From: Escherichia coli | GTDB lineage: Bacteria; Pseudomonadota; Gammaproteobacteria; Enterobacterales; Enterobacteriaceae | Direction: 5' to 3' (one strand) | NCBI RefSeq assembly: GCF_051903065.1 | Contig: NZ_CP178438.1 | Length of the DNA stretch: 64,000 bases | In this document: one piece after another, positions 36,062 through 38,396 of the stretch | How positions within the stretch are numbered: position 1 is the first letter of the stretch | How the letters are laid out: every line of letters begins with the position of its first letter | Position numbers and translations under genes: made by a program | The notes under the pieces: model-generated | Told to the model about the DNA's origin: nothing | The model's database searches: none | The model's input: the letters and a program-made list of their open reading frames with translations, nothing else

Positions 36062-37354
36062 ATGGACTTAGAAAATAAATTCTCATATCATTTTCTTGAG
36101 GGATTAACGCTCACGGAAGATGGAATTCTTACTCAAGGAAATGAGCAAGTTTATATTCCACCGAAAGAGTTAGGTGTATTAATAGTATTACTTGAATCCG
36201 CTGGTCATGTTGTACTGAAAGATATGATCATCGAATCAGTATGGAAAAATATTATTGTTAGTGACGAGTCCCTGACAAGATGTATCTATTCTTTGCGCTG
36301 CATTTTTGAAAAAATTGGCTATGATCGCTGCATAGAAACAATCTACCGGAAAGGTTATCGTTTCAGCGGGCAGGTTTTCAAAACTAAAATTAATGAAGAT
36401 AATACTTCAGACTATTCCATAGCTATATTCCCTTTCACCACTTCATTGAATACACTGGATCCATTAATACTTAATCAGGAATTAGTACAAATCATTTCAA
36501 ATAAAAAAATCGATGGTCTCTATACCTATCCGATGGCTGCGACAAATTTTTGTAATGACCACATATCTCAAAATTCATTCTTGAGCAGATTCAAGCCAGA
36601 TTATTTCGTTACAGGAAGAATAAACCAGAATAATGCAGTGAATACTTTATACATTGAGTTGATCGACGCTAAAAACCTTTTCCTCATCGCCAGTAATCAT
36701 CTCCCTGTTGATGAACTACATAATACATCACAATTTATTATAGATAATATCCTTCAAACGGTACATAAACCAGAACGATCTGTGAGATTAGCTAAGCAGG
36801 ACCAAGGATATAAGAATCATTATTTATCAGATGAAATGTTAGCCGGAAAGAAAGAACTTTACGAGTTCACCCCTGAAAGCATTTACAGGGCCATGACTAT
36901 ATTTGATGGATTACAAAATAAAAGTGATATACAGACGCTAAAAACAGAATGTTATTGCCTTCTAGCGGAATGCCATATGTCTTTGGCACTTCATGGAAAA
37001 AGTGAACTTGAACTTGCTGCTCAAAAAGCATTAGAGCTTTTAGATTATGTATCAAACATAACCAATGTCGATGGAAAAATTTTAGCTATTATGGGACTGA
37101 TAACTGGCCTGTCTGGACAAGCAAAAGTATCTCATATCTTATTTGAACAGGCTAAGATACACTCAACTGATATAGCCTCTCTCTACTACTATAGGGCACT
37201 TGTCAACTTTCATAATGAAAAAATTGAAGAGGCAAGGATTTGTATAGACAAATCACTACAACTCGAACCCAGAAGACGAAAAGCAGTTGTGATAAAAGAA
37301 TGTGTAGATATGTATGTGCCTAACCCGCTCAAAAACAACGGCTTTGTTGAATAA
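36062..37354 (+). CDS. ygeH: HilA-like transcriptional regulator, 3' end truncated by IS insertion
   Basis: 430-aa ORF with OmrP/ToxR-type winged-helix N-terminus (RKGYRFSG) and TPR-like C-region. Last codons GFVE plus stop are read from the IS terminal inverted repeat. Full-length YgeH is longer (about 458 aa from memory). Confidence 0.75.
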
Positions 37355-38396
37355 ATCAGATTTCGGGTAAGTCTCCCCCGTAGCGGGTTGTGTTTTCAGG
37401 CAATACGCACGCTTTCAGGCATACCTGCTTTCGTCATTTTGTTCAGCGCTCGTACCAGGGCCATAGCCTCTGCAACCTGACCATCGTAGTCACGCAGTGT
37501 CAGTGAACCCCCGAACAGCTGTTTTACCCGGTACATCGCCGTTTCCGCTATCGAGCGACGGTTGTAATCTGTTGTCCATTTCCACCGCGCATTACTCCCG
37601 GTCATTCGCTGATTAGCCACTGCACGGTTACGGTCTGCATATTCACCGGGCCAGTAACCCGCACCTTTTCGGGGAGGGATAAGCGCGCTGATTTTCTTAC
37701 GCCGCAGTTCATCGTGACATAGCCGGGTATCGTAAGCGCCATCGGCGGCGGCTGACCTGATTTTCCGGTGGGTTTGCCGGATTAACCCGGGGAAGGCCTC
37801 TGAGTCCGTAACGTTGTTCAGCGACAGGTCAGCGCAGATGATTTCATGTGTTTTACTGTCAACGGCGAGATGCAGCTTACGCCAGATACGGCGGCGTTCC
37901 TGGCCATGCTTTTTGACTTTCCACTCGCCTTCACCGAAGACCTTCAGCCCGGTGGAATCAATTACCAGGTGTGCGATTTCACCCCGGGTGGGCGTTTTGA
38001 AACTGACATTAACCGACTTTGCCCGCCTGCTGACACAGCTGTAATCCGGGCAGCGTAGCGGAACGTTCATCAGAGAAAAAATGGAATCAATAAAGCCCTG
38101 CGCAGCGCGCAGGGTCAGCCTGAATACGCGTTTAATGACCAGCACAGTCGTGATGGCAAGGTCAGAATAGCGCTGAGGTCTGCCTCGTGAAGAAGGTGTT
38201 GCTGACTCATACCAGGCCTGAATAGCTTCATCATCCAGCCAGAAAGTTATGGAGCCACGGTTGATGAGGGCTTTATTGTAGGTGGGCCAGTTGGTGATTT
38301 TGAACTTTTGCTTTGCCACGGAACGGTCTGCGTTGTCGGGAAGATACGTGATCTGATCCTTCAACTCAGCAAAAGTTCGATTTATTCAACAAAGCC
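37340..38396. mobile_element. IS903-group insertion sequence (IS5 family)
   Basis: About 1057-bp element bounded by 18-bp inverted repeats GGCTTTGTTGAATAAATC (left, about 37340-37357) and its reverse complement (about 38379-38396). Flanking 9-mers differ (aaaaacaac vs cgtttcact), so there is no target-site duplication. Confidence 0.85.
37396..38364 (-). CDS. tnp: IS903-type DDE transposase
   Basis: 322-aa ORF ending ...LVRALNKMTKAGMPESVRIA, characteristic of the IS903/IS102 transposase; N-terminus possibly over-extended by the track. Confidence 0.85.
   Translation of the reverse strand: MKDQITYLPDNADRSVAKQKFKITNWPTYNKALINRGSITFWLDDEAIQAWYESATPSSRGRPQRYSDLAITTVLVIKRVFRLTLRAAQGFIDSIFSLMNVPLRCPDYSCVSRRAKSVNVSFKTPTRGEIAHLVIDSTGLKVFGEGEWKVKKHGQERRRIWRKLHLAVDSKTHEIICADLSLNNVTDSEAFPGLIRQTHRKIRSAAADGAYDTRLCHDELRRKKISALIPPRKGAGYWPGEYADRNRAVANQRMTGSNARWKWTTDYNRRSIAETAMYRVKQLFGGSLTLRDYDGQVAEAMALVRALNKMTKAGMPESVRIA

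Follow-up and report, generated by a model that had tools for sequence, protein, structure and literature searches.

Genes and features at the ETT2 locus

ETT2 is a textbook horizontally acquired secretion island under "widespread mutational attrition". In the 64-kb stretch of E. coli DNA analyzed here (the window), annotation places this island between yqeG/yqeH and a tRNA-Gly gene (glyU), in DNA of low GC content. The ygeH gene, encoding a HilA-family regulator, occupies positions 36062-37339 on the plus strand and retains codons 1-426 of 458, with the 3' end gone. This assignment was made from the open reading frame list, from the NCBIfam YgeH model NF008870 (1005 bits against a cut-off of 800, aligned over profile positions 1-426 of 458), and from the endpoint as mapped on locus L003 of strain 88-3493; RefSeq automatic annotation likewise flags the gene as partial with a missing C-terminus. 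The last 32 codons of ygeH are lost at an insertion sequence. A first-pass annotation made from the sequence had reported this interruption and placed it near codon 430; the cut itself is correct, and the codon number is not, as 430 is the length of the open reading frame including four residues, GFVE, contributed by the element.

On the other side of the element, the eivC/sctN gene for the type III secretion ATPase is present on the minus strand (38397-39659) as a pseudogene of codons 1-421 of 430, as determined by annotation and junction mapping. The last nine codons (LKELERIVK) are missing, in agreement with the earlier description of an element abutting the extreme 3' end of the gene. NCBIfam model NF006012 (SctN) matches eivC in two fragments, and RefSeq automatic annotation flags sctN as a pseudogene. 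The two fragments are separated by an in-frame TAA (38676-38678, minus strand) that replaces a TAT codon found in relatives, giving Y328*; 88-3493, ETEC4070, and XH990 all lack this change. The mutation is unconnected with the IS junction and seems to be restricted to the clone. Beyond eivC, the right arm of ETT2 is retained on the minus strand at 39691-45343, where the open reading frame list and annotation give eivA (SctV), eivE (gatekeeper), eivG (SctC), and eivF, all annotated as intact. Just past the tRNA-Gly gene that bounds the island, actS (amidase activator; approximately 47931-48686, minus strand) is listed in the annotation as a pseudogene, with a stop inside the gene, a state common to strains 23CRST027 and ECNB21-M121.

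Identity of the insertion sequence

The DNA between ygeH and eivC is a 1057-bp block at 37340-38396 with perfect 18-bp terminal inverted repeats (0 mismatches), GGCTTTGTTGAATAAATC. Perfect copies of this sequence in the 64-kb window are confined to the two ends of the element, at 37340-37357 (left, plus strand) and 38379-38396 (right, minus strand). In a search of the window for inverted repeats, 0.07 matches were expected by chance at up to 3 mismatches; one weak, partnerless match to the IS903 inverted repeat, with 3 mismatches, lies at 59904-59921 and is most likely due to chance. The whole block is identical to IS903B (1057/1057 bases, 100%), as represented by many records annotated as "IS5-like element IS903B family transposase", and identical annotated copies occur on plasmids of Citrobacter, Salmonella, and E. 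coli. IS903B belongs to the IS903 group of the IS5 family and is the flanking element of Tn903 and its relatives. The first-pass annotation had called an IS903-type element with perfect terminal repeats; full-length identity extends this to IS903B itself.

The element is complete and lies on the minus strand, and its boundaries are also visible as a step in base composition, with 52.7% GC in IS903B against 27-39% around it and approximately 36% for the island. It carries an uninterrupted transposase reading frame of 322 amino acids from a TTG start (37396-38364, minus strand), identified from the open reading frame list and by NCBIfam model NF033579 (IS5-family transposase; 357 bits against a cut-off of 140, whole profile length covered). 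The IS903B transposase is annotated elsewhere as a 307-residue protein from an internal ATG start (WP_000654812.1, WP_001118619.1).

The junctions lack a target-site duplication

The 9 bases flanking the element on the left, AAAAACAAC (37331-37339), have no counterpart on the right, where the junction sequence is CGTTTCACT (38397-38405). The two 9-mers agree at 2 of 9 positions, which bears out the earlier claim that the element lies here with no target-site duplication (TSD). The possibility of a shifted or imperfect duplication was rejected, as a repeat search around the element returned chance-level short repeats only. As a positive control, an identical IS903B located elsewhere in ygeH in the O19:H7 strain 730V1 lies between perfect 9-bp direct repeats, TATGTCTTT. 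A 9-bp duplication is a property of the insertion event rather than of the element, and its loss is expected after a flanking deletion. At the window junctions there is neither microhomology nor filler DNA, and both ends of the element are untruncated, complete to the last base.

Both truncated reading frames run into the element and are closed by GFVE and a stop codon, encoded by the outermost 15 bases of either repeat: the first 15 nt of the left repeat (GGC TTT GTT GAA TAA) for ygeH, and minus-strand positions 38396-38382 of the right repeat for eivC. The first-pass annotation had emphasized this shared tail. Its sequence is as described, yet the weight placed on it was overstated; the tail is shared because the two inverted repeats are symmetric and identical and both genes enter them in the same frame, and the common frame is a 1-in-3 coincidence with no evident function. 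We rejected the GFVE tail as a functional feature, as it is the inverted repeat translated in one of three frames. For eivC, the frame was read correctly but the nonsense codon upstream was overlooked; since Y328* interrupts the gene before the junction, the GFVE-tailed frame does not form the C-terminus of any translated full-length product.

Extent of the deletion

To map what is absent, the junctions were aligned to relatives with a full-length ETT2. In strain 88-3493, whose flanks are 99.6-99.7% identical to those of the window, the left flank stops at position 16500 of locus L003 and the right flank restarts at 28424, leaving a contiguous 11,923 bp that is missing in the window. Identical breakpoints were obtained against ETEC4070, Res13-Sevr-PER07-33, and 1504D004, and the segment measures approximately 11.9 kb in two relatives other than 88-3493. 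The full ETT2 gene complement from ygeI to eivI is therefore not present, with 11.9 kb absent relative to loci L003, L004, L009, and L010. IS903B thus marks a real internal deletion of ETT2 whose endpoints map where the first-pass annotation had proposed.

The missing segment holds approximately 19 genes (ygeI to eivI), in addition to the ygeH and eivC codons noted above, and the list of lost genes given earlier proved correct by alignment to the full-length island of 88-3493. In its left part the segment contains the 3' end of ygeH, ygeI, a lytic transglycosylase gene (ygeJ), and a LuxR-type regulator gene (ygeK); also lost are orgB, orgA, eprK, eprJ, eprI, and eprH, an HTH regulator gene (etrA) with a small open reading frame, and epaS, epaR, epaQ, epaP, epaO, eivJ, and eivI.

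Relocation or inversion of the missing DNA was considered and rejected. The deleted segment has no match elsewhere in the 64-kb window, and six sampled pieces of it (1 kb of the 11.9 kb) added no matching places in 23CRST027 or 23CRST031, both of which remained at the 20 places found with an IS-containing query. In control genomes with the island retained, the same six pieces did add places, the count rising from 17 to 20 in LA3 and from 7 to 10 in OW968124. The window thus shows loss of a contiguous block abutting an IS end, retention of the intact IS, and no TSD, features expected of the product of an adjacent deletion.

The allele is confined to a small clone

The window differs from E. coli 23CRST027 (human feces, Ecuador; NZ_AP045789.1) by one base in 26 kb; this difference is at window position 32595, in yqeI, where the window has the allele of ECNB21-M121, so that the window stems from a close relative of 23CRST027, possibly 23CRST031, rather than from that strain. 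When the concatenated left and right flanks were used as a query against 5426 complete E. coli genomes, the junction was recovered in two, 23CRST027 and 23CRST031, both with the IS in between. An IS-free ygeH-eivC fusion was found in 0 of the 5426 genomes, so that there is no case of naturally adjacent ygeH and eivC beyond the two with this IS903B junction, and no other complete E. coli genome perfectly matches the 600-bp right flank. With 20 matching places each for the IS-containing query, 23CRST027 and 23CRST031 carry approximately 20 chromosomal IS903B copies.

GenBank already contains the exact YgeH(1-426)+GFVE chimera under accession PPW35158.1. The contigs that encode it, from GCA_002941455.1, GCA_036912935.1, and read set SRR21142187, break off inside the IS903B end. 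The right junction was recovered from read sets SRR24260334 and SRR27536171 with the same split eivC, so that Y328* accompanies the junction in both of these assemblies. Identical junctions were therefore obtained from two complete, two draft, and three read-set assemblies; the structure is genuine and reproducible, and its occurrence is limited to a small clone.

A precursor, that is, a member of the same clone with IS903B and its TSD at one endpoint and a full-length island, was not found among the 5426 complete genomes. Other IS903-group copies near ygeH all lie at positions differing from the window endpoint. Elements of this group occur inside or within approximately 4 kb of the ETT2 left arm (the equivalent of window 31000-37339) at several positions in at least 36 complete E. 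coli genomes, a few-fold above random placement by a rough count uncorrected for phylogeny. In some of these genomes, such as JX21CE33, the element at the left arm is the sole chromosomal IS903-group copy.

A sister isolate carries a different IS903B-bounded deletion

Strain ECNB21-M121 (meat, China; NZ_CP083585.1) differs from the window by 1 SNP over 18.5 kb of shared flank. Its ETT2 is deleted from ygeK to ygeQ, a loss of approximately 19 kb, and an identical IS903B lies at this deletion (L005, 10658-11714), flanked by CATCTAATT and CGGGGGAGT with no duplication. The two deletions share the clone, the IS and its orientation, the island, and the absence of a TSD. They differ at both endpoints; in ECNB21-M121 the entire right arm of ETT2 is gone, whereas ygeH is intact.

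Either one ancestral IS903B, located in the interval from ygeK to the 3' end of eivC, deleted outward differently in the two branches, or a separate copy inserted in each. A shared ancestral element requires 4 events, and two independent pairs of insertion plus deletion also require 4; with equal counts, ECNB21-M121 favors neither history. No intermediate was found among the 5426 complete E. coli genomes. We consider it a possible but rather doubtful scenario that, within this one recent clone, a single ancestral IS903B in ETT2 made successive adjacent deletions on both of its sides, eroding the island and giving rise to the ygeH-eivC allele in one branch and the ygeK-ygeQ allele in another. 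Were this the case, the AT-rich island would be a preferred IS903B target, and the IS would actively drive the decay of the pathogenicity island instead of passively marking it.

Origin of the deletion

The first-pass annotation had named adjacent deletion or recombination between IS copies as the source of the structure, and the data support this pair of explanations, which predict an identical product. We regard adjacent deletion by IS903B, through intramolecular transposition, as the most likely history of the window allele, and hold this reading with modest confidence. An active, intact IS903B lies at the junction of the approximately 11.9-kb deletion, in a clone carrying some 20 chromosomal copies of the element. 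Under adjacent deletion, ordinary transposition would first have placed a copy at either of the present endpoints or between them, creating a 9-bp duplication. Transposase acting with both IS ends would then have attacked a second site on the same chromosome in an intramolecular, replicative-type transposition, and the intervening DNA together with one IS copy would have been released as a circle and lost. The remaining IS would be bordered by the original target 9-mer on one side and the 9-mer of the new target on the other, with no duplication. We infer this order of events, and that transposase rather than RecA drove the deletion step. Adjacent deletion is favored because IS903 is documented to make such deletions commonly and because one insertion in the island is needed instead of two. 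Adjacent deletions by IS903 need both ends of the element and a cointegrate-type pathway (PMC11708052), and a passage in PMC12670165, citing Bernardi & Bernardi 1991, states that IS903 generates adjacent deletions and cointegrates. In long-term evolution lines, every one of the 14 TSD-less IS-associated deletions proved to be a multistep adjacent deletion, often one that lengthened over time (PMC11708052). The different TSD-less deletion of ECNB21-M121, with the IS in the same orientation, would fit divergent adjacent deletions from one ancestral IS.

Recombination between two elements appears distinctly less likely, though it is plausible. Here, ygeH and the 3' end of eivC would each have received an IS903B copy independently, the two copies sharing one orientation and each creating its own 9-bp duplication. 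RecA-dependent homologous recombination between them would have deleted the interval along with one IS, leaving a survivor whose left-hand 9-mer stems from one insertion and whose right-hand 9-mer stems from the other. Both routes leave the 9-mer of site A on the left of the IS and that of site B on the right, and sequence cannot separate them. The approximately 20 copies in the genome imply frequent transposition, and the island itself is often struck, at least 36 complete genomes having an IS903-group element in its left arm or close by, so that two insertions are not implausible. Recombination between IS copies is also a recognized cause of missing TSDs (PMC11708052). However, this route requires two same-orientation insertions within 12 kb before the deletion, none of the 5426 complete genomes was found to carry either insertion alone or both, and IS903 is documented to form adjacent deletions readily (PMC11708052, PMC12670165).

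A one-step origin, in which a break or rearrangement deleted the DNA and IS903B was captured during repair with no staggered cut of the target, seems improbable. Such a mechanism has been proposed for an element of the IS5/IS903 subgroup in E. coli C, where a 62-kb deletion centered on a new TSD-less IS5-family copy arose within one overnight culture (PMC11708052), and capture at a break would leave neither a TSD nor an IS-only precursor. Its authors, however, call insertion followed by adjacent deletion equally good for their case (PMC11708052), and the window junctions are clean, as described above. The remaining explanations are very unlikely. If IS903B had inserted at the junction of an older deletion, a 9-bp duplication would be expected, as in the 730V1 control, and the IS-free fusion is absent from all 5426 genomes; collapse during assembly is countered by the agreement of the complete, draft, and read-set assemblies on the junctions, and relocation of the segment by the absence of the sampled pieces from the genome.

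State of ETT2 before and after the deletion

Each full-length ETT2 relative examined has a frameshifted epaO (YscQ family) and a split eivJ (L003, 26146-27968; L009, 30247-32069; L010, 35988-37810). Together with the nonsense codon in eivC, these lesions suggest that the secretion apparatus was probably defective before the deletion, which would have removed an already degenerate system. In the close relative XH990 (NZ_CP019359.1; L006, 1-14545), the left part of ETT2 is replaced, beside eivJ/eivI, by IS1B and a resistance region that includes a class 1 integron with dfrA12-aadA, sul1, chrA, mph(A), IS26, and IS6100.

Judged from its gene content, the isolate cannot assemble an ETT2 apparatus, as the needle, the rings, the export gate, and the ATPase have each been lost or inactivated. 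Regulators with reported effects on other virulence genes, namely yqeH, yqeI, and eivF, retain an intact annotation, and ygeH has 426 of its 458 codons left. The sister pair with different IS903B-bounded deletions provides a small natural example of an expanding IS dismantling a silenced, horizontally acquired island, and this divergence within one clone is only a mildly interesting extension of what is known. The pair could also serve as a marker for tracking the clone.

Comparison with known systems

The IS903B copy in the window matches the reference element in length, sequence, inverted repeats, and intact DDE transposase; it is unusual in its context alone, which lacks the 9-bp duplication of a simple insertion. 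As in the adjacent deletions mediated by IS903, IS1, IS26, and IS150 (PMC11708052, PMC12670165), an intact IS is kept, contiguous DNA is lost on one side, and no TSD is present; in the window the assignment is made from the product. Approximately ten ETT2 deletion isoforms and transposase insertions in ygeH are listed in reviews (PMC11068852), and IS1 insertions and truncated eivC have been reported in individual strains (PMC6985150). The exact endpoints of the window allele, ygeH codon 426 to eivC codon 421 bounded by IS903B, were not found described in the ETT2 literature examined, although the allele is already in public databases as GenBank PPW35158.1 and in the RefSeq genomes of 23CRST027 and 23CRST031. 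These endpoints define one further ETT2 deletion isoform, of value mainly for bookkeeping and opening no new question. The window shares with known ETT2 attrition the location of the island (yqeG to tRNA-Gly), the internal loss of apparatus genes, and the presence of point pseudogenes. Taken together, events of this type have documented precedents, in the attrition of ETT2 as well as in the adjacent deletions made by IS903, and the deletion is a case of ordinary, well-understood genome erosion.
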